Shown: positions 12,501 to 56,248 of the stretch, in pieces
Layout of the letters: every line of letters starts with the position of its first letter
Numbering within the stretch: position 1 is the first letter of the stretch
NCBI GenBank assembly: GCA_020848905.1
Contig: JADLHG010000054.1
Coordinates: 1 to 64,000 of the forward strand
Source of the DNA: Deltaproteobacteria bacterium
Lineage (GTDB): Bacteria; Myxococcota_A; Polyangia; GCA-2747355; JADLHG01
Direction: 5' to 3'
Length of the DNA stretch: 64,000 nucleotides
The notes under the pieces: model-generated
Seen by the model: the letters and a program-made list of their open reading frames with translations, nothing else
Database searches by the model: none
Told to the model about the DNA's origin: nothing
Translations under genes and position numbers: made by a program

Positions 12501-12798
12501 GGGCCTTTCCAGCGTGGCTACCCTCCGGCCGGACATGGTGAAGATCGACATGTCGCTCGTGCGAGACGTCCATCGCGCGGCTCTCAAGCGGGACATTATC
12601 GCTGGGCTCGTCGACACCGCGCGGCGGGCAGGGATCGTGGTGGTCGCCGAGGGCGTCGAGACCGTGGACGAGCGCGACACCCTCGTGACGCTCGGCTGTG
12701 ACCTCCTACAGGGGTATCTGTTCGCCAAGCCGGGGCCAGCATTTCCCGTTCCACGTACGAACTTCAGATCGGATCCTGCCGCGGCATCTGAAGGCTGA
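9565..12798 (+). CDS. multidomain REC-HisKA-HATPase-REC-pseudoREC-REC-EAL signalling protein (c-di-GMP phosphodiesterase output)
   Basis: N-terminal REC. H-box AHDFNN and ATPase boxes (DTGTGMD, GTGLGLA). Three further receiver-like domains, the middle one lacking the phospho-acceptor Asp. C-terminal EAL domain with QPIV, ExLxR, EVTE, DDLGEGYAG, KIDMS, EGVET and QGYLF motifs. GAGGAG Shine-Dalgarno upstream. Starts 4 nt after the response-regulator stop. Confidence 0.85.
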   Translation: MGKPLRALIVEDVEKDALLLVRELKRGGYDVTFERVDTADAMGDALARRTWDVVLSDYSMPTFSAPQALAVVKAHSLDLPFIIVSGTVNEDIAVAAIHAGAHDFMAKNKLQRLIPAIERERRNAAMRAEQATMQQQLLQSQRMEAMGQLAGGIAHDFNNILAVILSYATFVRDALPEGDERRADVVEVLKGADRAAGLTRQLLAFCRQQPAAARPTDLNESLTQLHKLLVRTLGDDIALSVLPSARPAVVRIDPVQFDQIVLNLAVNARDAMPGGGELRIVVRNDQDEEARPVVRLSVSDTGTGMDEATQRRIFEPFFTTKERGKGTGLGLATCFAIVEKVGGRIRVESAPGRGSQFTVDLPLCDEPAHDQGRDWDIPLPASGEAVLVVEDEPSLRRATARVLERAGYRVQVASDSLEAMRRIDALGDRLRVVVTDVVMPGASGVDVAAYVARTAPHCRVILTSGYLTDAVHRRQPEELPMLWKPVPPRDLLRAVAQAISEGTASERTRSTESPASRPGELVLVIDCDAPSRRAIVSALNTAGYRALEAEAVATARALVEGGAEPMWILCEQGLLHGDGEAQFLRWIEVDRPNLIERVLILSDRATNDGCSHGVRWREDLVISKPVDVSELLWRLVRTSADAPSRTEIGVPFGSSGDLAQQARAGGTLRRSDATGDNEGGRGHLRESVLVVEDDESLAGAVSRLLGGAGYEVLVAGLLADARSALAAKEFDVLVVDLGLPDGGGLDLVRELRGGRSDVPIVLMTASPSVDSAAEAIRWRVSEYLPKPFPPDDLLRVVRTTVDGGRMARVRNKLLAARFGGNEFVADLRGTEQAFLRALPKIWIAYQPIVRGGDGSLFGYEALLRCHEPDLASPLRLFAAAEVLGRVHEVGRAVRAVVASTMLEHRERLEAIFVNVHPSELRADVLADSAEALLPLARRVVLEVTERASLDRGAKLDEELAHIRGRGYRLAVDDLGEGYAGLSSVATLRPDMVKIDMSLVRDVHRAALKRDIIAGLVDTARRAGIVVVAEGVETVDERDTLVTLGCDLLQGYLFAKPGPAFPVPRTNFRSDPAAASEG

Positions 12799-13072
12799 GA
12801 GGCGCCGAAGCCGAGCGGCGTCCGTGAGGCTCCCGGAGGCGGATCTACTAGGTCATCCAGAGCCGAACTACCGGAAGCGCGCCCATTGCGTCGCCGCCGG
12901 TGTGGCCGTCAGGGTGAACGACGTAGGCTAGAATGACGTGGTGACATCGCGCCCGGCGCGAGGCGACCGGAGCAGGTCGCGAGGTCGCGCCGCAATAGGC
13001 GCTCCAACCCGGTCGGCGTTCTAGGTCCGGAGGAAGGGGAGGCTGGACTGGAGAGGGATCGAGGGACGGCGC

Positions 13073-16039: not shown

Positions 16040-16087
16040 CGTCAACTCTCCGGGGATAAGGGATGGGGTGGTGCGCGCCCGGCCTAA

Positions 16088-16103
16088 GCAGCTTGCGTGC
16101 CAA
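16088..16103 (-). promoter_or_regulatory. candidate sigma54 (-24/-12) promoter for the decaheme cytochrome gene
   Basis: Minus-strand TTGGCACGCAAGCTGC has GG and GC at the consensus spacing of TGGCACG-N4-TTGCW. It lies about 50 nt upstream of ATG 16039 and next to a sigma54 activator gene. Confidence 0.4.
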
Positions 16104-16271
16104 TGCCGCAGCCTGCGATATCGCTGAGGAACGAGCAGCCGCGGGGCCGAGATGTCGCACGGCACCGGCGTAGCCGGAGTAGGCGCGCCAAAAATATTAT
16201 TCTTTATCGCGGCGTTAACTTGCAGCCGAAATGTCGGCCGCCTCCGGGCGAAAGGTCGGCCCCCTGGCGGC

Positions 16272-17870
16272 CTACCGGGTCCGCTTTAACTTGCTCTGCA
16301 GGGTGCTGCGCGGCACGCCGAGGATCTTCGCGGCGCGATGCAAGTTGCCGCCGGCCTTCTCCTGCGCCCAGTCGAGCACCGCCTGCTGGAACTGCTCCGT
16401 GAGCTGCGGTAGCTCGACAGAGGCCGCCTGGTCGAGGTGGAGTGCAAACGGGAGGGGTTGCTCGTCGGGGGTCTCCCCCCGCAAGTACTCGGGGAGGAAG
16501 GTCGGCGTCACGTCCGGCCCCGGGCAAAGGACGAGGGCCGACTCCATGGCGCGGCGCAGCTCCCTCACGTTTCCAGGCCAGGGATGACGCTGGAGGAGGT
16601 CTGCGGCACCCACCGAGAGGCGCTTCTTCGGCTGCCCCTCGGTGGTCGCCAACAGCGCGAGGAAGTGCGTGGCCAGCAGCACGATGTCCTCGCCGCGCTC
16701 GCGTAGCGGCGGCATATGGAGCCTGAGCCCGTTGAGCCGGTAATACAGGTCGTCGCGGAACCGCTGAGTCCTCACGTGGCCCAGCGATAGATCCGCCTTG
16801 GTGGTCGCCAGCACCCGGACATCCACGGCGATCTCGTCGGTGCCGCCCACCCGAGCGAAGCGGCCCTCCTGAAGCACGCGCAACAGCTTCGCTTGCAGCT
16901 CGATCGGCAAGTCGTCGATGTCGTCGAGGAGCAGCGTTCCTCCGTGGGCTCGTTCGAAGCATCCACGGCGGGACTGCGTGGCGCCGGTGAAGGCGCCTTT
17001 CTCGTGCCCGAGCAACTCGCTCTCGGCGAGCTCTCTCGGGATGGCGCCGCACGCGACCACGACGAAGGGTTCCTGTCGCCGCGGTCCCTGAAGATGCAGG
17101 GCACGAGCCGCCATCTCCTTGCCCGTTCCGGTCTCGCCGACGATGAGGACTGGCGCGGACGCCTTGGCGAAGATGGCGAGGCGCTCATGGACCTTTTGCA
17201 TGGCGGCCGACCTGCCGATCAGCCCCGAGCCACCACCCTCCGCGCTACCCACCAGCGCCTTGAGCGAGGAGAGCTCGCGCCGTGCCGTCGATAGCTCGCG
17301 CAACTGTGCGAGCCGCACCTCGAGCTCCATCGTCCGTTCCGCCACCTTCCGCTCGAGACCGTCTTTGAGGGCTCGCAGCTCCACCTCGAGGCGTTTGCGC
17401 GCAGTGATGTCCCGGACGAAGTGAACGAAGACTGGACGTCCTTCTGCCGTGACGAGTTCGACGGGGTAGACCAGAGACTCCACCCAGCTCCCGGTTCGCG
17501 CGTCGAAGAACTCTCGCTCGGCAGGCCCGCCTTCGGCCACGGACGCCTCGAGGGGGCAGCCCGGAAAGGGCTCGTTGAGCCCGTGCACCTCCCTGGGGCA
17601 ATAGCAGCCGAGCAGCTCCCGGGAGCTGCGCTTGAGGTCTCTCTGCATGGCGCGGTTGCTGGCGAGCACCCTGTGGGCGGAGTCCAGGACCAGCACGTAG
17701 AAGGGCAACGCGTCCAGCAGCGGCTGCAGCAACTCGAGCGCCGCCGGCGGTAGCGGGAGCCCGGGACTCGGGTGTGCGCCGTCGTCGCCTGCTGCCGGCG
17801 CGCGCTGATCAGGTTTAGTCTGCACCGGGTTCGTGACGTTGAGTCTCGCATGAGGGGCCTCGTCCCGCAA
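16272..17870 (-). CDS. sigma54-dependent transcriptional activator (PAS - AAA+ sigma54-interaction - Fis-type HTH)
   Basis: Walker A GETGTGKE, GAFTGA motif, and C-terminal HTH (ILGVPRSTLQSKLK). Track ORF starts with TTG at 17870 and has no nearby in-frame ATG. Confidence 0.85.
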   Translation of the reverse strand: MRDEAPHARLNVTNPVQTKPDQRAPAAGDDGAHPSPGLPLPPAALELLQPLLDALPFYVLVLDSAHRVLASNRAMQRDLKRSSRELLGCYCPREVHGLNEPFPGCPLEASVAEGGPAEREFFDARTGSWVESLVYPVELVTAEGRPVFVHFVRDITARKRLEVELRALKDGLERKVAERTMELEVRLAQLRELSTARRELSSLKALVGSAEGGGSGLIGRSAAMQKVHERLAIFAKASAPVLIVGETGTGKEMAARALHLQGPRRQEPFVVVACGAIPRELAESELLGHEKGAFTGATQSRRGCFERAHGGTLLLDDIDDLPIELQAKLLRVLQEGRFARVGGTDEIAVDVRVLATTKADLSLGHVRTQRFRDDLYYRLNGLRLHMPPLRERGEDIVLLATHFLALLATTEGQPKKRLSVGAADLLQRHPWPGNVRELRRAMESALVLCPGPDVTPTFLPEYLRGETPDEQPLPFALHLDQAASVELPQLTEQFQQAVLDWAQEKAGGNLHRAAKILGVPRSTLQSKLKRTR

Positions 17871-28133: not shown

Positions 28134-28149
28134 TGGCACATGCGTTGCT
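28134..28149 (+). promoter_or_regulatory. sigma54 consensus element TGGCACATGCGTTGCT
   Basis: Matches TGGCAC-N5-TTGC. Its GC dinucleotide lies only about 15 nt before ATG 28163, implying a near-leaderless transcript if functional. Confidence 0.35.
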
Positions 28150-30743: not shown

Positions 30744-30984
30744 TCCGCGCGCGGCGACTCCCGCGGGTTGCCCCGTGATCGACCGTGGCCGCTCCGGTCC
30801 TGGCCCCGCGTGCGGCCGTTCGGGCGGCGGCTGACGCCAGGCGCACGGGCCGCGGCATCGGGCACGTGGCTCGGAAATTCACGCACTTGGCGGCGAGGCG
30901 GGCTCGCCCGGGGCTGGCACCCCCATTGCAATTCTGGCCACCAACGGCTGCCCCTCTTCGGGGCCCGACAGCGGAGGAACGACG

Positions 30985-31921: not shown

Positions 31922-33205
31922 TCACCGCTCCGCCACCCGCACCCCATCGGCCACCCGATCGCTCGGGTAGACCACCACCCGCTCGCCGAGGCGTAGGCCC
32001 GAGAGCACCTGCACCTCGAGGCCACTGCGCGCGCCGACGCGCACCGGGCGCAGGTGCGCGCGCCCCGCATCGAGGACGAAGGCCATCCACTCGCCGCTTC
32101 TGCGAAAGACCGCGCCCGCGGGGGCCACGAGCGCGTCCGCGAGGCGCTGGATGCGGATGCGCGCCTCGACGCGGTAGCCGTCCCCGAGGGGGGCGAGCGT
32201 GGCGAGCGGCTCGTCGAAGTCGATCACCGCGTTCACCCGCTGCGCCTCGACGCCGAGGGCCGAGAGGCGCGTGAAGGCCGAGGGCTCGATGAGCCGGAGG
32301 TGCGCTCGGAGCGCGGCCTCTCCCCCCCAGCGCTCGATCCGCACCGCGGCGCCCGGCGGGATGCGCACGGCGTCGCTCGTGAGGAGCGCGGCCACGACCT
32401 CGAGCCCCGACGCGTCGCCGAGCTCGAGGACCGGGGTGCCGAGCTGCACCACCCCGCCCCCCTGCTGGAAGACGCGCAGCACGCGACCGTCGCTCGGCGA
32501 GGTCACGCCGAGCTGCTCCTCGGCCGGGGCGCCGCCCCGCAGCCGCGTGAGGGCCACGCGCGCCATCTGGACCTGGTGCTCGGCGACGTGGAAGCCGAAC
32601 TGCGCCGAGGTGAGCTCCTCGGCGCGCGCTCGGAGCTCGAGCTCGGCTCGCTCCACGGCCTGCGCGACCGTCGCGCCGCGGGCGGCGAGCTGGCGCTGTC
32701 GCTCGGCCTCGCGGCGGGCGTCGTGCAGTGCGAGCTGCGCGCGCGAGACGGCGGAGAGCGCCTGGCGCTGACTGGCGTGCGCCGCGCCGAAGCGCGCCTG
32801 CGCCTCGGCCCGCGTGCGGGCGTCGAGGAGCGGCGGAGGGAGCGGCACCATGCGGGCCAGGATCTGCCCCTTCTTCACGCGGTCGCCCACGCGCAGCTCG
32901 AGGCGCATCAGGTTGCCGGTCAGCGGCGCGGTGACCGCGTAGCGGTCCTTGACCCGCGTCTGTCCTTCCTCCTCGACCACGAGCTCGAGCACGCCGCGCC
33001 GGAGCCCCGCGAGGTCCACCGGGACGGGCGCCGGCCGCCACGCCACGGCCAGAGCCGCCGCGAGCCCGCCCACGAGCGCGGCGAGCAGCACCAGCCGTAC
33101 CGCGCGCTGCAGCTTCCGGCGGTGTCCCCGGCGGTGCTGCTCGATGGTCTCGGCGCGCGGGAGCGACCCCGCTGGTTCCACCTGAGGTTCGGCTCGTGTG
33201 GTCAT
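31922..33205 (-). CDS. efflux periplasmic adaptor (HlyD/MacA family)
   Basis: N-terminal TM, coiled-coil hairpin, lipoyl/beta-barrel segments. Start is 3 nt after the permease stop. Confidence 0.8.
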   Translation of the reverse strand: MTTRAEPQVEPAGSLPRAETIEQHRRGHRRKLQRAVRLVLLAALVGGLAAALAVAWRPAPVPVDLAGLRRGVLELVVEEEGQTRVKDRYAVTAPLTGNLMRLELRVGDRVKKGQILARMVPLPPPLLDARTRAEAQARFGAAHASQRQALSAVSRAQLALHDARREAERQRQLAARGATVAQAVERAELELRARAEELTSAQFGFHVAEHQVQMARVALTRLRGGAPAEEQLGVTSPSDGRVLRVFQQGGGVVQLGTPVLELGDASGLEVVAALLTSDAVRIPPGAAVRIERWGGEAALRAHLRLIEPSAFTRLSALGVEAQRVNAVIDFDEPLATLAPLGDGYRVEARIRIQRLADALVAPAGAVFRRSGEWMAFVLDAGRAHLRPVRVGARSGLEVQVLSGLRLGERVVVYPSDRVADGVRVAER

Positions 33206-33208
33206 GAC

Positions 33209-35575
33209 TCACTCCCTCGTCTTGAGGACCGCGACCAGGTCCAGCTGGTCCAGCATGCGCCGGACGAGCAGCGCGCTCACCACCCCCGCCCCGATCACCA
33301 CGGCCACCGCGAAGGCGTAGGTGCGCGCGCTGATCACTGTCGGGAAGCGATACTGCTCGGGGTCCACGGTGCTCATCATCCCGTGCGCGAGGGCGGTGCC
33401 GATGAGGAGCCCCGGCCCGAGCGCGAGGAGCAGCTCCGTCGCGAGCTGGCCGAGCAGCAGCGCCGAGACCTCCGCGCGCGAGAAGCCGAGTACCCGCAGA
33501 CTGCCGAGGTCGCGACTCCGCACCGAGAGCGCCACGCGCGCGTTGTTGTAGACCACGCCGACCGCGATGGTGACCGCGAAGAAGGTCAGGATCGCGGTGG
33601 TGAGGCCCATGTTCTCGGCCATCTGCTGGCGCACGCGATCGATCAGCGCCTGCCGCCGCAGCACCGAGCCGACCGCCGGGAAGCGCTTCAGGCGTTCGTC
33701 CACCGCGCGCACGCGCTCCGGGTCCACGGTCAGGAGCGCGGCCGATAGCTGCCCCTGCTCGCCGAGGAGGCGCTCGAGGGCCGCCAGGCGCAGGTGTCCC
33801 TGCAGCCCGAGCGGCTCCTCGGTGAGGCCGGACACGATGAGCGGTTTCGTGCGGCGGTCCCCCTCGCGGAGCTCGGCCAGCACCGTGCCTCCGACCCCGA
33901 CGCCGAGGACGGCGGCCAGCTTGCGCGTGAGCACCACTCCCTCGTTAGGGAGAGGCACGACGCGGGCGGGAAACTCGACCACCTGGCGGAGCGTCACCTC
34001 CGGGCCGTAGCCGAGGAGCACGCTCTCGCGGTGGCGGTGTCCGACGTGGAAGCGCACGGGCACCGCGCGCAGGCCCTCGACGCGCTGGACGCCGGGGAGC
34101 TGGGCCAGCTCGCCGAGCGAGCGTCTCGGCTGCGGGCGAAGGAAGGTGACCGTCAGATCGTCGCGCTGCGCGAGGCTGAACTGGAGGTCCATGAAGTCCT
34201 CGACCGCGTCGTACATGAAGCGCCCTACGACCAGGATGCCGATGGCCAGCGCGATGCCGAGAGCCGAGAGCGCGGTGCGGAGCGGGCGGCGCGTGAGCTC
34301 GCGCAGGATCATCTTCCCCGCCGGTCCGAGCCACGAGAAGAGCCCCGCGCGTTCCAGCCAGGAGGTGCGGTAGCTCGCGGGGGCCGGCGGCTGCATCGCC
34401 TCGGCGGGAGGGAGGCGCATCACCCGCCGGGCGGTGCCGAGCCCGCCGAGCAGCGCCGCGGCGAACGCGGCCAGCGCCGCGGTGGCCACGAGGCCGCCGT
34501 CGAGCGCGAAGGAGAGGTTCGGGAAGCGGAAGTACCGCTGATAGAGGTCCGTCATCCCCTGCCCGAGGTACGCGCCGAGGCCGATGCCGAGGAGCGTGCC
34601 GCCGGCGACGACGAGGACCACGAGCTTCAGGTAGTGCAAGCCGACCTGGCGGCCCCCGTAGCCGATGGCCTTCAGCGTGGCGATCTGCGTGCGCTGGAGC
34701 GAGACGAGCCGGGCCAGCACCAGGTTCAGGAGGAACGCGGCGACGCCGAGGAAGATCACGGGGGTCACGGTGGCGAAGGTGCGGAGCTGGGTGAGCTCGC
34801 CGGTGACGAAGCGGTGCGAGAGCTGTTGCTCGCGGGCGTAGGCGCCGCGGCCGCCGTAGGGCTCGAGCTGGCGGTCCAGCGCGGCGACCACCGCGCGCGG
34901 CGAGGCGCCGGGCTGGAGGCGCACGACGAGGTCGTTGAAGGCCCCTTCCATGCGGAAGGCCGGGCCGAGCTGGGCCCGGTCCATCCAGAGCACGGCGAAG
35001 CGCTTGTCGTCGGGGAAGGCGTCGCCGCCGGAGAGCGCGAAGACGTACTCGGGCGAGAGCGCCACGCCCACCACGCGGAGGCTCCGGCGCTTGCCGTTCA
35101 GGATCGCGGGAAGGCGATCGCCGGGCCCGAGCGCGTGGGCCTTCGCGAAGGACTCGTGCACCAGCACCTCGTCGGGCTGACCGGGCTCGGGGAGGCGGCC
35201 GCGGCGCAGGTAGATGCCGCAGAGCGGGGCGGGGCCGCTCGCGGGGAGCGAGATGAGGCGCGCGCTCGCGAGCTCGGTCGGGGCGGGGAGGGGCAAGCTG
35301 ACGCTCTGCACGATCCGCGGATAGACCTCCGCCACGCCGGGGATGGACTCGATGCGGCGGGCCTCGGCCTCGGGGACGCGCTCGGCGCTCGCGAAGAGAT
35401 CGGCGAAGCGGTAGCGCTCGTAGTAGGTCGTCTGGGCGGTTTCGATCGACGCGTAGGTGCCGCGGGTCGTGATGTACGAGGCCACGCCGCAGGCCACGAC
35501 GAGCGCGATGGTCAGGACCTGCCCCTTGAGCGCGAGCAGGTCGCGCAGGAGCTTGCGGTCGAGCGCGCTCACCAT
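33209..35575 (-). CDS. ABC transporter permease with two FtsX-type domains (MacB-like)
   Basis: Starts [13 protein letters not shown]. Start and ATPase stop overlap in ATGGTGA. The listed 1210-aa track ORF is an artefact that runs on upstream in the permease frame across the ATPase gene, which is read in another frame. Confidence 0.8.
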
Positions 35576-36327
35576 CGCAGCTCCTCCGGGCGCGCGCGGG
35601 CCAGGTTGCGTTCCTCGCGCTGGAGTCGGCCGTCGGCCATGGTCAGCACGCGATGCGCCATGGCGGCGATGGGCACGTTGTGCGTGATCACCGCGGTGGT
35701 GGTGCCGAGCTCGCGGTTCACCTGGTCGATGGCGGCGAGCACGAGCCGGCCGGTCTGGAAGTCGAGCGCCCCCGTGGGCTCGTCGCAGAGCAAGAGGTCG
35801 GGACGCTTGGCGACGGCGCGGGCGATGGCCACTCGCTGCTGTTCGCCGCCCGAGAGCTGCGACGGGAAATGATCGAGGCGGTCGGCGAGTCCGACGAGCG
35901 CGAGCGCCTCCTCGGGGGCGAGCGGGTCGGGCGCGATCTCCGTGACCAGCGCCACGTTCTCGCAGGCCGTGAGGCTCGGGATGAGGTTGTAGAACTGAAA
36001 GACGAAGCCCACGTGCTCGCGGCGATAGCGCGTGAGCTCGGCCTCGCTCGCGGCCGAAAGATCGTGGTCGCGATAGATCACCGTGCCGCTCGTCGGCACG
36101 TCGAGGCCGCCGAGGATGTTGAGCAGCGTGGATTTCCCGCTGCCGGAGACACCGACGAGCGCCACGAGCTCGCCGGCGTAGAGCTCGAGGTCCACGCCGC
36201 GCAGCGCCAGCACGGACACCTCGCCCATGACGTAGGTCTTCGTGAGGGCTCGCGCCTCGAGGACGGCGTGCGGCGGCGCGGCTACCGCGTCGTCGCTGCG
36301 GATGGAGGCGCGAAGAGGGCCGTCCAT
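35569..36327 (-). CDS. ABC transporter ATP-binding protein (MacB-type ATPase)
   Basis: Walker [10 protein letters not shown], signature LSGGEQQR, Walker [10 protein letters not shown]-loop. Confidence 0.85.
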
Positions 36328-36752
36328 GCTGCCAGGTAGAGCAAGCGGAGTGCCACCGTGTGCGAGACGGAGGCCTCGATCCGCGGGGGGAGGGCTGGGG
36401 CGGTGAGAGGCCGAAGACAAGGATCTCGCGGGCCTCGACGCGTGGGGAGGCGCCCGCGCACAAGGGGGGTGCGCCGCGGGCGGCGCGGCCTGGGCCAGCT
36501 TGCGGAGGGTGCGAAGCGCTGCGAGGCGAGGTCCGGTGCGAGCTGACCCACCCCTTGCGCCAGTCGCACGGCCCCGTGGCCAGGCTGGCCCGTACCAGGG
36601 CGCAGCCGGGCCCGCGCCGGCCCGTCGTCGTGGTTCGTCGCCCGGGGGCCGGGGAAGCCGCGGAGGCGCGTTCGGCCGTTGCTCTCCGTCGGGGCGCGCG
36701 AAGATCCTTGACCTGGGGCCCGTGGCACGCGAGATGCTCCCTCTCACGGCAC

Positions 36753-37787
36753 ATGCGGTTCCTCGGCATTGCACTCGGCTTGGCGGTCGTCGCGCAGGGC
36801 TCCCTGGAGCTCTCTGCGCGGGCGGAAGGCTCGTGCGGCAAGGGCGGCGCCTCGGGCGAGAGCCAGCAGAACCTCGGGCAGAGCTACTACAAGGTCAGCA
36901 CCCCGCCCGGCTACGACGGGACGAAGGCCGTCCCGCTCTGGCTCGTGCTCCACGGCGACGAAGGCTCGCCGAGCACCGTCTATCCGAAGTTCTTCGCCCT
37001 GCAGCAGCAGCGCGGCGGCGACTTCCTGCTCGTCACGCCGAAGGCCTATCTCGACGGCGGGAGCTGGTGGCACACGCCGGACCCGCACATCGCCTTTCTC
37101 GATCAGGTGCTGGCCAAGGTGCTGGCCGACTACAACGTGGACAAGGACCGCATCTACCTGGCCGGCTTTTCGGGTGGCGGAAGCCTCTCCACGCGCTACG
37201 GCGTCGAGCGCCAGGACCAGTTCGCGGGGATGCTGCTGCTCGCCGGGGGCTCTCTCGGCACGAGCTACAAGCCGCCCGCCGGCTCGTGCAAGATCCCCGC
37301 GCGCTACGTGATGGGAGACGTGGACAGCCTGCGCTCGATCAACAAGGCGCACTACACGCTCCTGCAGGGCAAGGGGCACGACGTGGTCTGGGTGACGCTG
37401 CCGGGCACGGGCCACGAATGGCAGAAGCTGCTCGCGGAGACGGTGCTCGACGAGGCCTGGGCCTGGATGAAGAGCAAGACGATGTGCGGCACGACGAAGG
37501 CCGGACCGTGCGGCGGCGGTGGCACCGCGGACAGCGGGGTTCCTCCCGTGCGCGTGGACAGCGGCTCGCCTCCGACGAAGAGCGACGCCGGTATCGGACG
37601 CGCCGACCTCGGTCCGGTCGGGTTTTCCGACGGCGCGCCGACCGGAAAGCCCGCCGCGGCCTCTCCTCGCGCCATGCTCGGAGGGTGCGAGGTGGGTCGT
37701 GCCGAGGCGCTGCCCGCACCGACCGCGGCCGCGCTTCTCCTCGCGGTCGGGATCCTGCTACGCAGGTCGCGCCGTCGCCGCCGATAG
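36753..37787 (+). CDS. secreted alpha/beta-hydrolase (esterase/depolymerase-like) with MYXO-CTERM-type C-terminal sorting tail
   Basis: Signal peptide. GFSGGG nucleophile elbow. C-terminus [35 protein letters not shown]. Confidence 0.7.
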
Positions 37788-37994: not shown

Positions 37995-38010
37995 TGGCAC
38001 GTCCGTTGCT
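37995..38010 (+). promoter_or_regulatory. sigma54 promoter TGGCACGTCCGTTGCT
   Basis: Perfect match to TGGCACG-N4-TTGCW, about 50 nt upstream of ATG 38061. Confidence 0.5.
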
Positions 38011-38060
38011 CCTCCTACGCTTCCGGCGGGGATTGCCCGTCCGATTTGTAGAGGAGTGAC

Positions 38061-38843
38061 ATGCAGACCCATCGAGCGACGTGTCGTCGCGCGGCGTGGT
38101 GTATCGCCGCCCTGACGGCGAGCCTCGTCCTGGTTTCCGCGCGCGGTGCGTTCGCGCAGAACCTCCAGCAGCAGTGGCGCGCGAAGGCGCAGGCCTATTG
38201 CCAGCAGTTCGGCCTGCCGATGCGGGAGGTGCCGCTCGCGGCGCGCCCCGGCATGTGTCGCATCGTGGTGCCGATCCTCGCCAACACGTATCAGGCCTTC
38301 GAGCAGACCTTCAGCATGGCGAACGGCGCGTTCATCTATCGCGCGGCGAACGACAAGGTCCACGTCACGCTGAACCTGGGGCCGAACGACTTCATGTCCT
38401 ACGGCTACGGCAACGGCGTGAACGGCTACTTCGCGCTCCGCAATCGCGCGGCGAACGGGAACATGAGCCCGCAGCTCGGCGGGGAGTACCAGGTGCTCGG
38501 TCTGCCGGCGCCGGAGTTCAACCACCTGACGAACTTCTGGGCCCAGGACGGCGCGAGCTGGCAGAACTACGCCGCGCGGCGCCCGGGAGCCCAGCAGCGC
38601 GCCGGCTGCATGTGGTGGCTCGTCTCGGCCGAGAGCGGCCCGAACCAGAGCCTCTGGCACCGCTTCGGCGTCAGCCGCTCCGCCACGCCGGCGAACCTCT
38701 TGCCCAAGCTCATTCATGCAGGGAACGAGTGGGTCGGCCCGCTCGGTATCCCGGTAAATAGCATTCAAGAGTTCAACGCCATGAACGATGCGCAGCTGCT
38801 GCGCCCCCCGCCGGGTGGTGGGGCAGCCGACGCGGTTCGCTGA
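38061..38843 (+). CDS. secreted protein of unknown family, paralog A
   Basis: Signal peptide. 260 aa. GAGGAG Shine-Dalgarno. Shares three conserved Cys with paralog B. Confidence 0.7.
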   Translation: MQTHRATCRRAAWCIAALTASLVLVSARGAFAQNLQQQWRAKAQAYCQQFGLPMREVPLAARPGMCRIVVPILANTYQAFEQTFSMANGAFIYRAANDKVHVTLNLGPNDFMSYGYGNGVNGYFALRNRAANGNMSPQLGGEYQVLGLPAPEFNHLTNFWAQDGASWQNYAARRPGAQQRAGCMWWLVSAESGPNQSLWHRFGVSRSATPANLLPKLIHAGNEWVGPLGIPVNSIQEFNAMNDAQLLRPPPGGGAADAVR

Positions 38844-38902
38844 GCGCGACACCCCGTCGTCAGCGCCGGTCGCTCGACTGGCCCGAACGTGGAGAGCCTG
38901 TC

Positions 38903-39685
38903 ATGACCTCACTCGGGGCGAGAGCCCTTCGCGCTGCCTGGTTCCTCGGTCTGCTCGGCGCTGTGACGCTCGTGGGCGGCGCGAGGGTCGCTTCCGCGCA
39001 GAACCTCCAGCAGCAGTGGCGCGCGAAGGCGCAGGCCTACTGCCAGCAGTTCGGGCTGCCCATGAAGGAGGTGCCGCTCGCCGCGCGCCCCGGCCTGTGC
39101 CGGATCGTGGTACCCGTGCTGGCGAACACCTACCAGGCCTTCGAGCAGGCCTTCAACGTGACGAACGGCGCGATGATCTATCGCGCCGCACAGGACAAGA
39201 TCCACGTCACGGTCAATATCGCGCCCGGGGACTACGCGCATTACGGCTACGGCGCGGGCGGGAACGGCTATGCGGCTGGGCGGACGCGTGCCGCCAATCC
39301 CAACATGGCGCCGAACGGTACCGGTCAGTATCAGGTCTTCGGGCTGCCGCAGCAGGAGCTCCAGCACCTCCTGAACTTCTGGGCCGCCGACGGTGCGAGC
39401 TGGAACACGTACGTCGCGCGGCATCCGAACCAGCAGCAGCGGGCCGGGTGCATGTGGTGGCTCGTGCAGGCCGAGGTCGGGCCCAACCAGAGCCTCTGGC
39501 ACCGTCTGGGCGTGAGTCGCTCGGCCTCGCCGGCGAATCTGCTGCCCAAGGTGATCCACGCCGGGAACGAGTGGGTCGGCCCGCTCGGCATCGCGGTGAA
39601 CAGCATCGAGCAATTCAACGCGATGACGGCCGATCAGCTGCTCGGACCTCCGCCGGGGGGCGGGGCCGCGGACGCGGCGCGATAG
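38903..39685 (+). CDS. secreted protein of unknown family, paralog B (tandem duplicate)
   Basis: 260 aa, about 70% identical to paralog A, with an identical AQNLQQQWRAKAQAYCQQFGLPM block. GGAGAG Shine-Dalgarno. Confidence 0.7.
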   Translation: MTSLGARALRAAWFLGLLGAVTLVGGARVASAQNLQQQWRAKAQAYCQQFGLPMKEVPLAARPGLCRIVVPVLANTYQAFEQAFNVTNGAMIYRAAQDKIHVTVNIAPGDYAHYGYGAGGNGYAAGRTRAANPNMAPNGTGQYQVFGLPQQELQHLLNFWAADGASWNTYVARHPNQQQRAGCMWWLVQAEVGPNQSLWHRLGVSRSASPANLLPKVIHAGNEWVGPLGIAVNSIEQFNAMTADQLLGPPPGGGAADAAR

Positions 39686-39734: not shown

Positions 39735-40745
39735 CTACCAGTCCCCGAAGTCGAAGCCCCCGCCGCCGTCTCCGCCGAAGAAGTCCCCCGCCGAGCGTTC
39801 GAAGTCCCCGCCGTCGAGGCCGCCCATCTCGCCGCTCAGGTCGCCGCCCAGGTCGCCGTCGTAGGCCGAGCTCAGCTCCTGGCCGCTCGCGGCCGCCTGC
39901 AGCGAGTCGACGCTCATCGTGTCCGTCGCGCCGAGCGGGAAGCCGGCGTAGTTCACGACCGTGTAGTGCGGCATGAAGGCCCAGGAGAGCATGGAGCTGA
40001 ACATCATCATCGAGAGCAGCCCGGAGAAGGGGCTCGGGTAGTAGCTGTCGTAGGGGTCGTAGCGGTGGTCGGTGGGCGCCACGGCCGGGGGCCGCTGGCC
40101 CTGGCTCGGCTGCTCGACCTTCGCCTCGGCCTCGCGGACGCTGATCTCGGCATCCGCCAGGGTGCCCCGCAGGGCGTCGGCCACGCGGCTCACGAAGGCC
40201 TCGAACTGCGCGCGGTGGGCCTCGAAGATGGCCGGGGTCTTCGTGAGCGGTTCGACCCGCGCGCGGTAGGCCTCGGCCGTCTCGCCGGGGCGGGGCTCGA
40301 AGTCCTTGATGCGGCCGCCGATCACCACGCGGGCCGCGGTCTCGTTGGCGGCGTGCTCGCTGCGCGCCATCACTTCGATGACCGTGTGCAGGCCCGCTTC
40401 CTCGTGCTCCACCACCAGGCGGAGGAGGTCGAAGTTCGTGCCGAAGACGGGCGCGTTGTCGCGGAAGGCGGCCATCAGGTCCGCGAGGTCGTCCGGGTGG
40501 CCCTCCTTGTCCTCGAAGAGCACCTGCTTGTCGATGACCAGCGAGATGGCGTTGGTCGCGCCGAGGCGGGTGAGCGCCTGCCGCGAGCCCTCGACCAGCG
40601 TGGCCGCCTCGAGCGAGGTGCGGACCCGATCCGTGCGCAGGTCGGGCGAGCCGCCGAAGGCCTTCTTCACCTTGTCCCAGAAGCCGGGGTCGCGAAGCAC
40701 CTGCTCGCCGTGAACGCGAATGTCGATCATGCCGTGGAGTTTCAT
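39735..40745 (-). CDS. hypothetical protein with hydrophobic segment and Asp/Gly-rich C-terminal tail
   Basis: 336 aa. C-terminus ...GDLGGDLSGEMGGLDGGDFERSAGDFFGGDGGGGFDFGDW. Confidence 0.45.
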   Translation of the reverse strand: MKLHGMIDIRVHGEQVLRDPGFWDKVKKAFGGSPDLRTDRVRTSLEAATLVEGSRQALTRLGATNAISLVIDKQVLFEDKEGHPDDLADLMAAFRDNAPVFGTNFDLLRLVVEHEEAGLHTVIEVMARSEHAANETAARVVIGGRIKDFEPRPGETAEAYRARVEPLTKTPAIFEAHRAQFEAFVSRVADALRGTLADAEISVREAEAKVEQPSQGQRPPAVAPTDHRYDPYDSYYPSPFSGLLSMMMFSSMLSWAFMPHYTVVNYAGFPLGATDTMSVDSLQAAASGQELSSAYDGDLGGDLSGEMGGLDGGDFERSAGDFFGGDGGGGFDFGDW

Positions 40746-51672: not shown

Positions 51673-53256
51673 ATGCAGAAAGAACTTCTCCTCGGAGATG
51701 AGGCGGTGGCCCAGGCCGCGCTGCACGCGGGGATTGGCGGCGCCTTCGCCTACCCCGGTACTCCGGCCACGGAGATCTTCGAACACGTCGAGCGGGTCGT
51801 GCGCCGGCACGCGCTGCCCGTGGCTACCGTCTGGTCCACGAACGAGAAGGTGGCCTACGAAGAGGCCCTCGGCATGTCCTACGCGGGACGCCGCGCGCTG
51901 GTCTCGATGAAGCACGTCGGGCTGAACGTGGCCGCGGACCCGTTTCTCAACTCGGCCCTGAGCGGTGTGAACAGTGGATTGGTCCTGGCGGTGGCCGACG
52001 ACCCCGGCATGCACTCCTCGCAGAACGAGCAGGACAGTCGGGTCTACGGAGATTTCGCCCAGGTGCCGATCTTCGAGCCCGCCACGCAGCAAGAGGCCTA
52101 CGACCTGACGCTCAAGGCCTTCGCCGCGTCGGAGGCGCTCGGGCTGCCGGTGATGCTCCGTCTCGTGACGCGGCTCGCGCACAGCCGGGCCGGGGTCGCG
52201 CCGCACGGAGCGCCCGTCGAAGGCGCGGCGCTGCCGCAGCGACCGCTCCCCGACCCGAGCAACTGGACCCTCGTCCCGGCCAACGCGCGGCGGCGCTTCG
52301 CCGAGCTGACGCGCCTGCAGGCGCGTCTCGTGGCCGAGTCGGAGTGCGCGCCGGAAAACGAGCTCATCCTGGCGGGGCGGCGCGGGGTGATCGCCGCGGG
52401 GCACGCGGTGACCTACGTGCGCGAGGCGCTGGGTGGCGCGACCGATCGCTCGCTGCTCAAGGTCGGCCGCTACCCGCTCCCCGTGGCGCGGATCCGCGAG
52501 CTCGTGGACCACTGCGACGAGCTCCTCGTCGTCGAGGAGAGCTACCCCTTCATCGAGCGCCGGCTGACGGGGCTCCTCGGCCTGCCGGGGAAGGCCGTGC
52601 GCGGCAAGCTCACCGGGGACCTCCCCCCGACGGGCGAGCTGACTCCCGAGCTCGTGGCGCGAGCGCTCGGCCTCGAGACGCGCGCGACGGGTACGGCGCT
52701 TTCGGACCTCGCGAACCGCCCGCCCCAGCTCTGCCGGGGTTGTCCGCACGCCGACTCCTTCAAGGCCCTCGTCGAGGCGGTGGCCACCTTCGCGAACCCG
52801 CTCCTCTTCAGCGACATCGGCTGCTACACCCTCGGCGTGATGCCGCCGTATCGCGCGGTCCACGCCTGCGTGGACATGGGCGCCTCGATTGCCATGGCCC
52901 ACGGCGCGGCGCGGGCCGGGGCCTACCCCGTCCTCTGCACCATCGGCGATTCCACCTTCGGGCACTCCGGCATGACGGCGCTGCTGAGCGCGCTGCACGA
53001 TAACGCCGATTGCACGGTGCTCCTCCTCGATAACTCGGCCGTGGCCATGACCGGCGTGCAGCCGAGCCACACCACGGGGGAGCGACTCCTCGCCATCCTG
53101 CGCGGGCTCGGCGTTCCCGAGGCCCACTTGCACGTGATCGAGCCGCACCCGAAGCACCACGCGGAGAACGTGGCGCTGCTCAAGCAGGCCATCGCCCACC
53201 GCGGGCTGAGCGTGGTGGTGGCCGAGCGCGCCTGCATCCACCTGAAGACCCACTGA
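51673..53256 (+). CDS. indolepyruvate/2-oxoacid:ferredoxin oxidoreductase alpha-subunit-like (TPP-binding)
   Basis: N-terminus MQKELLLGDEAVAQAALHAGIGGAFAYPGTPATEI is typical of IorA-type enzymes. CRGCPH motif. GDSTFGHSG TPP-binding region. Confidence 0.75.
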   Translation: MQKELLLGDEAVAQAALHAGIGGAFAYPGTPATEIFEHVERVVRRHALPVATVWSTNEKVAYEEALGMSYAGRRALVSMKHVGLNVAADPFLNSALSGVNSGLVLAVADDPGMHSSQNEQDSRVYGDFAQVPIFEPATQQEAYDLTLKAFAASEALGLPVMLRLVTRLAHSRAGVAPHGAPVEGAALPQRPLPDPSNWTLVPANARRRFAELTRLQARLVAESECAPENELILAGRRGVIAAGHAVTYVREALGGATDRSLLKVGRYPLPVARIRELVDHCDELLVVEESYPFIERRLTGLLGLPGKAVRGKLTGDLPPTGELTPELVARALGLETRATGTALSDLANRPPQLCRGCPHADSFKALVEAVATFANPLLFSDIGCYTLGVMPPYRAVHACVDMGASIAMAHGAARAGAYPVLCTIGDSTFGHSGMTALLSALHDNADCTVLLLDNSAVAMTGVQPSHTTGERLLAILRGLGVPEAHLHVIEPHPKHHAENVALLKQAIAHRGLSVVVAERACIHLKTH

Positions 53257-53269
53257 GAGAGACGACGCC

Positions 53270-56248
53270 GTGGAGCACAACATCCTTCTCGCGGGCGTGG
53301 GGGGGCAGGGCATTCTCTCGATCGCGCAGGCCATCTCGGGGGCAGCGCTCCGGCGCGGGCTCGAGGTGCGCCAGGCCGAGCTGCACGGCATGAGCCAGCG
53401 CGGCGGCGTGGTGCAGGCGCACCTCCGCATCGCCGACCACGTGCTGCACAGCGACCTCATCCCCGCGGGGCGCGCCGACCTCCTCATCTCCGTCGAGCCG
53501 CTCGAGGCGCTGCGCTACGTGCACCTGCTCGCCGACGGGGCGTCGCTCGTCTCGAGCGTCAACGCCTTCGTCAACCTCACGGGCTATCCGGCCGTCGAGG
53601 GGCTGCTCGCGCGACTCGCGGCGCATCCGCGCCACGTGCTCATCGACGCCGAGCGCCTCGCGCGGGCGGCCGGCTCGGGGCGCGCGGCCAACGTCGTGCT
53701 CCTTGGCGCGGCCTCGCTCTTCGTCGAGCTCGCCGCGGACGAGCTCGAGGCGGCGGTGGCCGGGCTCTTCGCCGAAAAGGGGGGCGCGCTGGCTGAGGCC
53801 AACCGGCGGGCCTTTCGCTTCGGCCGCCACGCGGCGCGCACCTACCTCGACGGCGTGGCCCGCGGCGCGAGCTCGGCCGCGGTGCGCCACTTCATCGAGA
53901 CCCTCTCCCCCGAGCACCTCGCCGCGGCCGAGCGCCCCGACGAACCGGTCTTCCCCGTCGAGCCCTTCGAGGAGCGGCTCTCGGGGGCCGAGGAGCACGC
54001 GGTGGCCCTGTCGCTCAAGGCCGCGCTGGCGGAGGGCCGCACGCAGCTCTTCGAGCACGAGGTCTACACCATCGTGCAGCTCGTGGGGGCCATCGCGCCG
54101 CCCGAGCACCTCTTCGTCAGCCACCACGAGCTCCCCACCGACGAGGCGCTGGCGCAGCTCCCGGGCGACCAGGTGGTGCTGAAGGTCGTCTCTCCGGAGG
54201 TGGTGCACAAGAGCGACGCCGGCGGAGTCGTCTTCGTGCGCAAGGACGGCGACGTCGTACGCGCCGCGCTCGACCGACTCTTCGCGCGTCACGCCGAGGC
54301 GGACGTGAGGGGGGTGCTGATCGTCGAGCGCGTGCCCCAGGCTGCCGCGGGTCTCGGGAGCGAGCTCTTCGTCGGACTGCGGGCCACGCGCGAGTTCGGC
54401 CCCGTGCTCGCGGCGGGGCTCGGCGGGCTCGATACCGAGTACCTGGCGCAGAAGATGCGCCCCGGGCTGGCGGTGGCCAAGGCCCTGGCGAGCGAGGTCA
54501 CGGCCGAGGAGTTTCTGACCCTCTTTCAGCGGACGGCGGCCTACGAGCTGCTGGCGGGGCGCGTGCGCGGGCACGAGCGGTTGGTCGGCGACGGAGAGCT
54601 CGTGCGCTGCTTCCGCGCCTTCCTGCTCCTCGCCCGCCACTTCGCCACCGCGCGCGACGAGGGGCCGTCGCTCGTCGAGCTCGAGGTGAACCCCTTCGCC
54701 TTTCGCCACGCGCGGCTCGTACCGCTCGACGGGCGGGGACGCCTCGGGACCGCGGCGCGCGCCAAAACGCCCAGGCCGCGGCAGAAGCTCCGCGCGCTCC
54801 TCGAGCCCGGGCGCGTCGGAGTGATAGGCGTCTCGAGCTCCGCCGCGAGCTTCGGCCACATCATCCTCTCCAACGTGCAGCGGGCGGGTTTTCCGCGCGA
54901 GCGGCTCACGGTGATCAAGCCGGGGGTCACCGAGCTCGACGGCGTGGCCTGCGTACCGAGCCTGACGGCTCTCGAGGAGCCCGTCGATCTCCTGGTGGTC
55001 GCGGTGGGAGCCGAGCAGCTCCCGGCGATCGCGAAGGAGGTGGTGGAGAGCGGCAAGGTCCAGTCGGCGATTCTCATCCCGGGGGGGGCCGGCGAGACGA
55101 AGGGGAGCGAGGCGCTGGCCGAGGAGCTGCGGCGGATCGTGGCCTCAGGTCGCGCGCGTCCCGACGGGGGCCCGCTCTTCCTCGGGCCGAACAGCCTGGG
55201 GGTCGTCTCGCGCCCCGGCCGCTACGATACGTTCTTCGTGCCCGAGAGCCGCATGGACAAGCGCTTCGAGGCGCGGGCGCGTCCCGTCGCACTCGTCTCG
55301 CAGAGCGGGGCCTTCATCGTCAGCCGCCTGAGCAACCTGGAGACGCTCGACCCGGCCTTCGCCATCTCGATCGGCAACCAGCTCGACCTGACGCCGGCCG
55401 ACCTGCTCTCGGCTCTCGCGGAGCGCAGCGACGTGAAGGTCGTGGCGATCTACGCCGAGGGCTTCGGCGACGAAGAGGGGCTAGAGCTGGTGCGGGAGAT
55501 CGACGCCGCCACGCGGCGGGGCACGCAGGTGCTCTTCTACAAGGCCGGGCGCACGGCCGAGGGGCGCAGCGCGGCCGCGGGGCACACGGCGTCGGTGGCC
55601 GGCGACTACGACGTCTGCACCGCCGCCGCGACCGAAGCGGGGGCGCTCGTCACGGACACCTTTCGCGAGCTCGAGCAGCTCCTCGAGCTCTGCGCGTTCC
55701 TCTGTGACAAGCGGCCCGCGGGGACGGCGCTCGGTGCGATCTCGAACGCCGGCTTCGAGGCGGTGGGGATCGCCGACGCGCTCGTCGGACCGCGGTGGCA
55801 GCTCACCTTGCCCACGCTAGCGGCCGGGACGATGGAGGCGCTGCGCGCGGCCCTCGAGCTACACGGCCTGACGCGGCTCGTGACGCCCAGGAATCCGCTG
55901 GACCTCACCCCGATGGCCACCGACGCCGCGTACGAGGCGGCGGCGCGCGCCTTCCTCGCCGACCCCGGTCTCGACGCGCTGGTGGTCGGGATCGTGCCGC
56001 TCACGGCCACCCTGAAGAGCGTGCCCGGAGAGCTCGCCTCCGAGGAGAGTCTGGCCCGCCGCCTGCCCGCGCTGCTCGCCGGCTCGGACAAACCGCTCGT
56101 GGCGGTGGTGGACGCGGGGCCCCGCTACGAGCCGCTCGTCTCGGCGCTACGCGCGGGAGGCGTCCCGGTCTGTCGCTCGGCGGATCAGGCGATCCGTTCG
56201 GTGGGCCGCTACCTCACGCAGCATCAGACCGTCTGGAGCCGGCGCTGA
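53270..56248 (+). CDS. fusion of an IorB-like gamma/beta subunit with NDP-forming acyl-CoA synthetase domains (ATP-grasp plus CoA-binding/ligase-CoA)
   Basis: N-terminal about 190 aa MEHNILLAGVGGQGILS (pyruvate/ketoisovalerate-OR gamma-like). Middle ATP-grasp segment (VVLKVVSPEVVHKSDAGGVVF). C-terminal CoA-binding Rossmann segment (RVGVIGVSSS...PGGAGET). GTG start. Confidence 0.75.
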   Translation: MEHNILLAGVGGQGILSIAQAISGAALRRGLEVRQAELHGMSQRGGVVQAHLRIADHVLHSDLIPAGRADLLISVEPLEALRYVHLLADGASLVSSVNAFVNLTGYPAVEGLLARLAAHPRHVLIDAERLARAAGSGRAANVVLLGAASLFVELAADELEAAVAGLFAEKGGALAEANRRAFRFGRHAARTYLDGVARGASSAAVRHFIETLSPEHLAAAERPDEPVFPVEPFEERLSGAEEHAVALSLKAALAEGRTQLFEHEVYTIVQLVGAIAPPEHLFVSHHELPTDEALAQLPGDQVVLKVVSPEVVHKSDAGGVVFVRKDGDVVRAALDRLFARHAEADVRGVLIVERVPQAAAGLGSELFVGLRATREFGPVLAAGLGGLDTEYLAQKMRPGLAVAKALASEVTAEEFLTLFQRTAAYELLAGRVRGHERLVGDGELVRCFRAFLLLARHFATARDEGPSLVELEVNPFAFRHARLVPLDGRGRLGTAARAKTPRPRQKLRALLEPGRVGVIGVSSSAASFGHIILSNVQRAGFPRERLTVIKPGVTELDGVACVPSLTALEEPVDLLVVAVGAEQLPAIAKEVVESGKVQSAILIPGGAGETKGSEALAEELRRIVASGRARPDGGPLFLGPNSLGVVSRPGRYDTFFVPESRMDKRFEARARPVALVSQSGAFIVSRLSNLETLDPAFAISIGNQLDLTPADLLSALAERSDVKVVAIYAEGFGDEEGLELVREIDAATRRGTQVLFYKAGRTAEGRSAAAGHTASVAGDYDVCTAAATEAGALVTDTFRELEQLLELCAFLCDKRPAGTALGAISNAGFEAVGIADALVGPRWQLTLPTLAAGTMEALRAALELHGLTRLVTPRNPLDLTPMATDAAYEAAARAFLADPGLDALVVGIVPLTATLKSVPGELASEESLARRLPALLAGSDKPLVAVVDAGPRYEPLVSALRAGGVPVCRSADQAIRSVGRYLTQHQTVWSRR

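Follow-up and report, generated by a model that had tools for sequence, protein, structure and literature searches.

What are two tandem, secreted paralogs of no recognisable domain family doing behind a sigma-54 promoter? The question arises from a stretch of 64,000 nucleotides (the window; 70% GC; contig JADLHG010000054.1, positions 1 to 64,000) of a metagenome-assembled genome (MAG), in which an earlier note, made from the sequence alone, had pointed out two such genes, here called A and B (coordinates in Table 1). As the note stated, they lie head to tail and encode 260 amino acids (aa) each; the two products align without gaps at 72% identity (73% for the DNA), close to its estimate of about 70%, and mature A and B share the motifs CMWWLV and WHR.GVSRS that it had listed. 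Sequence comparisons place the pair in a small, uncharacterised family of exported proteins of about 230 mature residues from Myxococcota-like bacteria, a family that is itself a member of no described one. On that evidence it is real, well delimited and under conserved sigma-54 control.

The earlier note had called the family unrecognised and had proposed that remote homology and phylogenetic distribution be checked. Pfam and NCBIfam searches with A and B gave no domain match, and searches of Pfam, NCBIfam and PDB sequences with A, B, a 57-member family alignment and each member singly returned nothing meaningful. Only six proteins came out of a word-indexed search of 5.8 billion; all are unnamed or "hypothetical", and they include a second tandem pair in the same MAG ("Deltaproteobacteria bacterium", locus tags IT371_...). 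A profile search of 1.84 billion representatives extended this to 115 relatives at E ≤ 1e-3, of which 47 reach E < 1e-30; two of the 115 are again from the same MAG, which thus holds at least six paralogs. The named genomes among the relatives are Myxococcales MAGs, the other loci come from soil-type and TARA ocean metagenomes, and a metagenome scan with a narrow family alignment returned six loci. The distribution is therefore that of a small family from Myxococcota-like bacteria, and the description as unrecognised stands, with neither a Pfam or NCBIfam domain nor a close structural relative found.

The proteins had also been described as secreted, and inspection of the N-termini of the 115 relatives supports this: a signal peptide stands at the start of nearly all full-length members. 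Nearly all of them also end in LLGPPPxGGxxDAxR, and in some a long coiled-coil insertion separates this C-terminal tail from the body. By inspection, the signals of A and B have a basic N-region, a hydrophobic core and an AxA cleavage motif (in B, predicted cleavage between ASA and QN) and no lipobox Cys, and export would probably proceed by Sec with processing by type I signal peptidase.

The claim of a textbook sigma-54 element about 50 nt upstream of the first gene proved accurate: TGGCACGTCCGTTGCT matches the consensus exactly and sits 50 nt ahead of the ATG of A. The window contains 4 exact matches to TGGCAC-N5-TTGCW, versus 0.02 expected, and all 4 lie directly upstream of open reading frame (ORF) starts. 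In the second paralog pair of the same organism (locus L001), TGGCACGGCGGTTGCT lies 33 nt ahead of the first ATG, and at nine further loci, from other organisms, a −24/−12 element with 0–2 mismatches, GG and GC kept, is found just before the first family gene. The element precedes the first gene of the family operon at 10 of 10 loci checked, and at 4 of the 6 metagenome loci found later. It has no mismatch in L001, L005 and L012, one in L006, L008, L009, L010 and L011, and two in L003, L004 and L014/L015. Across 179 kb (the window plus the loci) there are 16 matches with at most one mismatch, 7 of which lie 8–67 nt upstream of a family operon, versus about 0.06 expected. Because the element is conserved upstream of family operons, the assignment as a sigma-54 promoter is, at the level of sequence, well supported.

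These elements resemble known sigma-54 promoters in their −24 GG and −12 GC, their canonical spacing and, for the seven matches just mentioned, their short distance from the operon. Sigma-54 regulons have been argued to centre on the bacterial exterior (Francke et al. 2011, PMC3162934), which fits the exported products here. The present case differs from the known ones in that the promoter at 37995 has no assignable enhancer-binding protein or upstream activator site: an inverted repeat as a possible activator site was looked for upstream of it and none was found, and the nearest activator gene is 20 kb away. That gene (16272-17870, − strand) encodes a sigma-54 enhancer-binding protein with PAS, Sigma54_activat, AAA lid and HTH_8 domains, and is the only sigma-54 activator among the window ORFs scanned. 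The other exact sites in the window precede a 391-aa protein of unrecognised kind (28134-28149, +), a 290-aa protein, also of unrecognised kind (30915-30930, +), and the ATPase gene of a MacAB-like ATP-binding cassette exporter operon (36340-36355, −) whose genes occupy 35569-36327, 33209-35500 and 31922-33205, all on the − strand.

No promoter-like element had been noted before the second gene, and scanning the 59-nt spacer between A and B agreed with this, finding neither a sigma-70-like nor a sigma-54-like element, nor a terminator. Since the spacer has a ribosome-binding site and no promoter or terminator match, co-transcription of A and B as a two-gene operon is the simplest reading of the sequence. 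A terminator hairpin was looked for downstream of B and none was found. The GC content at third codon positions (GC3) of both genes is 0.89, as in real genes of the window, and the product of A is 100% identical to P0001.

To ask which residues the family holds on to, we counted conservation in the 57-sequence alignment. Three conserved cysteines had been noted, and C47, C66 and C183 are indeed common to A and B; only C183 is kept family-wide, and C47 and C66 are not conserved. C183 is present in 54 of 57 sequences (95%), and M184 and W186 in 53 each. The residues kept in at least 90% are R67, V70, P71, F80, C183, M184, W186, G203, R206, G229, F238, L246, G248 and P251; H219, K216, N222, N212 and S207 follow at 75–90%, and H200 at 65%.

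AlphaFold, given the same alignment, predicted a structure for A with a predicted local distance difference test score (pLDDT) of 95.3 and a predicted template modelling score of 0.89; this model replaced one made with only 6 sequences (pLDDT 49). In it, Cys183 stands at the N-terminus (N-cap) of helix 182–188, which follows a beta-sheet and two helices. Each protein is built as a frame (residues ~33–95 plus ~179–260) into which a hypervariable module of beta-meander and helix (~96–178) is inserted, and the frame carries a conserved basic/polar cluster (R55, R67, R94, R206, S207, N212, K216, H219 and N222). Foldseek comparison of the model with PDB and BFVD gave no match at E ≤ 0.001, and neither this nor the Pfam and PDB sequence searches gave a clear match to a characterised enzyme family. 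The modelled fold thus appears confident but without a confident relative in the libraries searched (PDB and BFVD), because the carboxylates of the nucleotidyltransferase fold are absent (see below) and the family profile aligns with a 23-sequence YiiX profile at an hhalign probability of 0.4%. With 115 clusters, a confident model and the motifs CMWW, GVxRS, KLIHAGN and LLGPPPxGGxxDAxR, the family is well defined and ready for curation.

Two other structural ideas were considered and set aside. Profile positions 28–91 (A residues ~40–95) locally resemble the helix and next strand of SUMO2 (KAYCERQGLSMRQIRF versus QAYCQQFGLPMREVPL, PDB E 0.022), and the family profile also picked up a poly-ubiquitin-like protein, P0118; the resemblance is local and without fold-level support, and we do not place the family among the ubiquitin-like/SUMO beta-grasp proteins. 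The C-terminal LLGPPPxGG... tail is unlikely to be a detachable sorting signal, because it is modelled as part of the domain at pLDDT 97–99 and the long forms merely insert their coiled coil before it.

The division into frame and centre is also visible in how tandem copies diverge. The family forms arrays: L003 has six copies, the last of them frameshifted, L009 has three and L013 two. In all arrays, L003 and L009 included, the proportion of nonsynonymous differences (pN) is 0.05–0.18 in the frame (~31–95 and ~179–260) and 0.30–0.58 in the centre (~96–178), where it is about equal to the proportion of synonymous differences (pS). Frame pS is mostly 0.3–0.6 in L003 and lower, 0.17–0.28, in L009. 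Since the frame keeps a high pS, the ends of the L003 copies appear to be held mainly by purifying selection and not by homogenisation; in L009 there may have been some homogenisation. The six L003 copies (9914-14221) run head to tail with 4-nt stop/start overlaps, and the last is split by its frameshift into ORFs 13506-14162 and 13520-14221.

Of the 10 loci with long flanks, 5 have a family gene beside, or fused with, a member of one subfamily of acetyl-coenzyme A (CoA) hydrolases/transferases: the two are neighbours in L003, L009 and L010 and a single protein in L006 (P0012) and L008 (P0061). These partners are 47–71% identical to one another, and all have signal peptides. The partner matches the 4-hydroxybutyrate CoA-transferase structure 3d3u at E 2e-48, and its catalytic Glu (SEM) and GGQxDF motif are both preserved. 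The likeness to class I CoA-transferases of the 4-hydroxybutyrate type (PF02550, PF13336) belongs to the partner enzyme and not to the family itself, and the partner differs from them in its signal peptide, which is unusual for a CoA-dependent enzyme. We regard this linkage as the most unusual point of the system: CoA-dependent chemistry is not expected outside the cytoplasm, so the family together with an exported CoA-transferase may point to a new extracytoplasmic acyl-transfer chemistry. Literature searches covering both the motif and exported CoA-transferases of myxobacteria brought up nothing relevant. In L008 the sigma-54 element and the fusion gene are separated by a gene (7120-7899, +) for an exported 259-aa protein with an HNCASF motif and no Pfam match, which by hhalign (5%) is not detectably related to the family.

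What, then, might A and B do? Tentatively, and with a good deal of doubt, we suggest that they are exported thiol-dependent acyl hydrolases or transferases with Cys183 as nucleophile and the variable centre providing specificity. Cys183 would form an acyl-thioester intermediate, and the enzyme, a hydrolase or an acyl-transferase, would act in the envelope or beyond the cell on a substrate that is anionic and of carboxylate type. The centre would set the target, which would explain why several diverged tandem copies occur per genome. An acyl-thioester context is suggested by the adjacency or fusion to the CoA-transferase-like enzyme in five loci; in those related genomes the same chemistry would be coupled to that exported enzyme, and in the present genome the pair would stand alone, adjoining an esterase resembling polyhydroxybutyrate (PHB) depolymerases. 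If this proposal is correct, the family would be a previously unnamed group of exported cysteine-dependent enzymes in the envelope or predation toolkit of Myxococcota, with a built-in variable specificity module and conserved sigma-54 control.

Such a mode of action would resemble that of the NlpC/P60 permuted papain-like hydrolases (PF05708: YiiX/YaeF, PDB 2if6 and 3kw0; the type VI secretion system effector TseH, 6v98), an analogy that we likewise offer with low confidence and that falls short of demonstrated membership. Those proteins are similar in size and exported or periplasmic; A, as modelled, may also share with them a nucleophile-type Cys that begins a helix preceded by a beta-sheet and two helices (the permuted order), and a His ahead of the sheet (here H101). 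The family differs from them in its poorly kept His and acid partners, in an extra conserved N-terminal alpha/beta unit, in a 70-residue conserved C-terminal extension that ends in the tail motif, and in its hypervariable centre. Several points weigh against a catalytic role of this kind. H101 is kept in 74% and D/E110 in about 53%, below what a triad would lead one to expect, although the alignment is least reliable in this variable region. The YiiX comparison given above reveals no profile relationship, and Pfam, which is without any match at all, gives no PF05708 Peptidase_C92 match for A, B and the 57 relatives; at the level of sequence we therefore reject membership in YiiX/Peptidase_C92. 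The CoA-transferase-like partner gene is absent from the 64-kb window. Finally, the one conserved Cys might instead have a structural or redox role or bind a ligand.

The same observations can be arranged around a non-catalytic role, which we judge rather unlikely and nonetheless a serious contender: the proteins could serve, once exported, as binding or adaptor proteins, for example as specificity subunits, as inhibitors or immunity-like partners, or as thiol carriers for the exported CoA-transferase-like enzyme, with the variable centre as recognition surface and the conserved frame docking to a partner. A hypervariable centre in a conserved frame, like multi-copy tandem arrays, is what one typically sees in recognition modules; that the family is fused to, or lies beside, one specific enzyme suggests that the two are physical partners; the conserved residues do not make up a complete catalytic triad; and the long coiled-coil insertions of some members are commoner in scaffolds. 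However, an active site is the likelier reading of a near-invariant free Cys that stands, in an exported protein, at a helix N-cap among conserved Arg, Lys, His, Asn and Ser, and the proposed partner is missing from half of the loci, this window among them. Should the proteins be binding modules only, they would add one more family of unknown function.

We think it improbable that these are exported nucleotidyltransferase-fold proteins, kin of RelA/SpoT-like or MenT-like toxins (Tas1, secreted small alarmone synthetases), acting on nucleotides. More than half of the top 60 hits have that fold (MenT1, an exported small alarmone synthetase, ANT(2''), RsfS, CCA-adding enzymes, CD-NTases), and the many conserved Arg and Lys residues could bind phosphates. 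But every Asp or Glu in residues 31–180 stays below 60% conservation (D79, at 54%, and D98, at 47%, come closest), and the metal-binding, catalytic carboxylates and G[SG] motif that mark the active forms of such proteins (Tas1, 6ox6; MenT1, 8an4; exported small alarmone synthetase, 8vx3; RsfS) are thus missing. Neither RelA_SpoT nor NTP_transf is matched in Pfam even at E ≤ 1, there is no sequence similarity to this family, the conserved Cys is foreign to that fold, and outside the cytoplasm the protein would meet no nucleotide triphosphates, unless it were delivered to the inside of another cell. Little probability, too, goes to a more elaborate scheme in which the family would be the protein-thiol partner of the exported class I CoA-transferase in a cofactor-independent acyl-thioester relay outside the cytoplasm, with Cys183 replacing the CoA thiol, the centre directing the acyl group to envelope or prey targets, a dedicated sigma-54 activator controlling the system and the window pair as stand-alone members. 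What probability remains beyond the thiol-enzyme proposal and these alternatives falls to something else.

The earlier note had further taken a stretch of roughly 70 nt, nearly identical between A and B, as a sign of recent gene conversion. The stretch itself exists: the 69 nt encoding AQNLQQQWRAKAQAYCQQFGLPM (AQNLQQ...GLPM), at the 5′ end of the mature coding region, show 3 differences between A and B and contain one stretch of 45 nt without any. Conversion as its cause is possible, and in our view doubtful; here the note, sound on most of its points, read too much into the sequence. In its favour, synonymous divergence (dS) in the tract is 0.28, versus 0.73 for the mature-protein mean, and pS is 0.31 at residues 31–95, versus 0.58 at 179–260; the tract, however, has only about 15 synonymous sites, and many of its codons are for Gln, Trp and Lys, residues that allow hardly any synonymous change, or none, at 70% GC (Gln codons differ between A and B in 0 of 14 cases, and Trp has a single codon). 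In simulations conditioned on the amino-acid identities and the codon freedom of each residue, the 14-codon identical run had P = 0.013–0.036 and the 24-codon window P = 0.14–0.28. The tract thus seems to exceed only slightly the length to be expected from codon bias and protein conservation. At its 5′ edge it starts right where the signal peptide is predicted to be cleaved, which selection on the mature protein would explain no worse than conversion. Copies 2 and 3 of the L003 array share identical first 30 codons, which speaks for conversion, but the high pS of the array ends (0.3–0.6) points to purifying selection rather than homogenisation.

An ENA contig (L002, 1-1097) adds a mosaic of B, A and the paralog IT371_22460. 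Positions 1-116 correspond to B with the spacer upstream of it, 162-552 to A with 7 mismatches, and 591-1097 to IT371_22460 and the gene downstream of it, again with 7 mismatches; the junctions fall exactly in the shared tracts of 45 and 38 nt. The mosaic speaks for conversion, but this 1.1-kb MEGAHIT contig may be either a real recombinant or an assembly chimera across the 38–45-nt repeats.

Table 1. Features of the A–B locus and of related loci; positions are in the window unless a locus is named.
Feature	Position	Strand	Basis or remark
Sigma-54 consensus TGGCACGTCCGTTGCT, −24 TGGCAC and −12 TTGCT	37995-38010	+	Exact TGGCAC-N5-TTGCW match
Ribosome-binding site of A, GAGGAG	38051-38056	+	Read from the sequence; ends 4 nt before the ATG
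Gene A	38061-38843	+	ORF; 260-aa exported protein, NCBI MAG hypothetical protein IT371_23190
Signal peptide of A, residues 1–32	38061-38156	+	Predicted cleavage between AFA and QN; translation inspected, relatives have equivalent N-termini
Near-identical tract in A	38153-38225	+	45-nt exact run; partner in B
Variable central module of A, residues 96–178	38346-38594	+	pN 0.30 versus 0.07–0.09 in the flanks, A versus B
CMWWL motif codons of A, including Cys183	38607-38621	+	Family conservation; N-terminus of predicted helix 182–188
Spacer A–B, 59 nt	38844-38902	+	Ribosome-binding site GGAGAG at 38891-38896; no promoter or terminator match
Gene B	38903-39685	+	ORF; 260-aa paralog, IT371_23195
Near-identical tract in B	38995-39067	+	Partner of 38153-38225
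Family plus CoA-transferase-like loci	L003 8370-14221; L009 7708-11499; L010 8001-12319; L006 6033-8282; L008 8001-10151		Different organisms

The upstream neighbour of the pair (36723-37787, +) encodes an exported alpha/beta hydrolase with weak matches to the PHB-depolymerase esterase family and ends 207 nt ahead of the sigma-54 site. Its C-terminus (GGCEVG..., a hydrophobic stretch and RRSRRRRR) resembles a MYXO-CTERM-type sorting tail, and no NCBIfam model confirmed this. An alpha/beta hydrolase also adjoins the L009 operon; the two are not orthologs. Downstream, a convergent 336-aa ORF (39735-40745, −; GC3 0.97) without a Pfam or NCBIfam match has a Gly/Asp-rich C-terminus, GGDGGGGFDFGDW, and its end lies 49 nt past the stop of B.

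Elsewhere in the window, a 1030-aa protein (13073-16165, −) has collagen triple-helix repeats together with MtrC/MtrF-like multihaem cytochrome domains, an unusual combination. Two adjacent genes at 51673-56248 (+) encode a thiamine pyrophosphate-dependent 2-oxoacid:ferredoxin oxidoreductase-like protein and a 992-aa fusion of POR gamma, ATP-grasp, CoA-binding and succinyl-CoA-ligase-like domains; this fusion resembles ADP-forming acyl-CoA synthetases.

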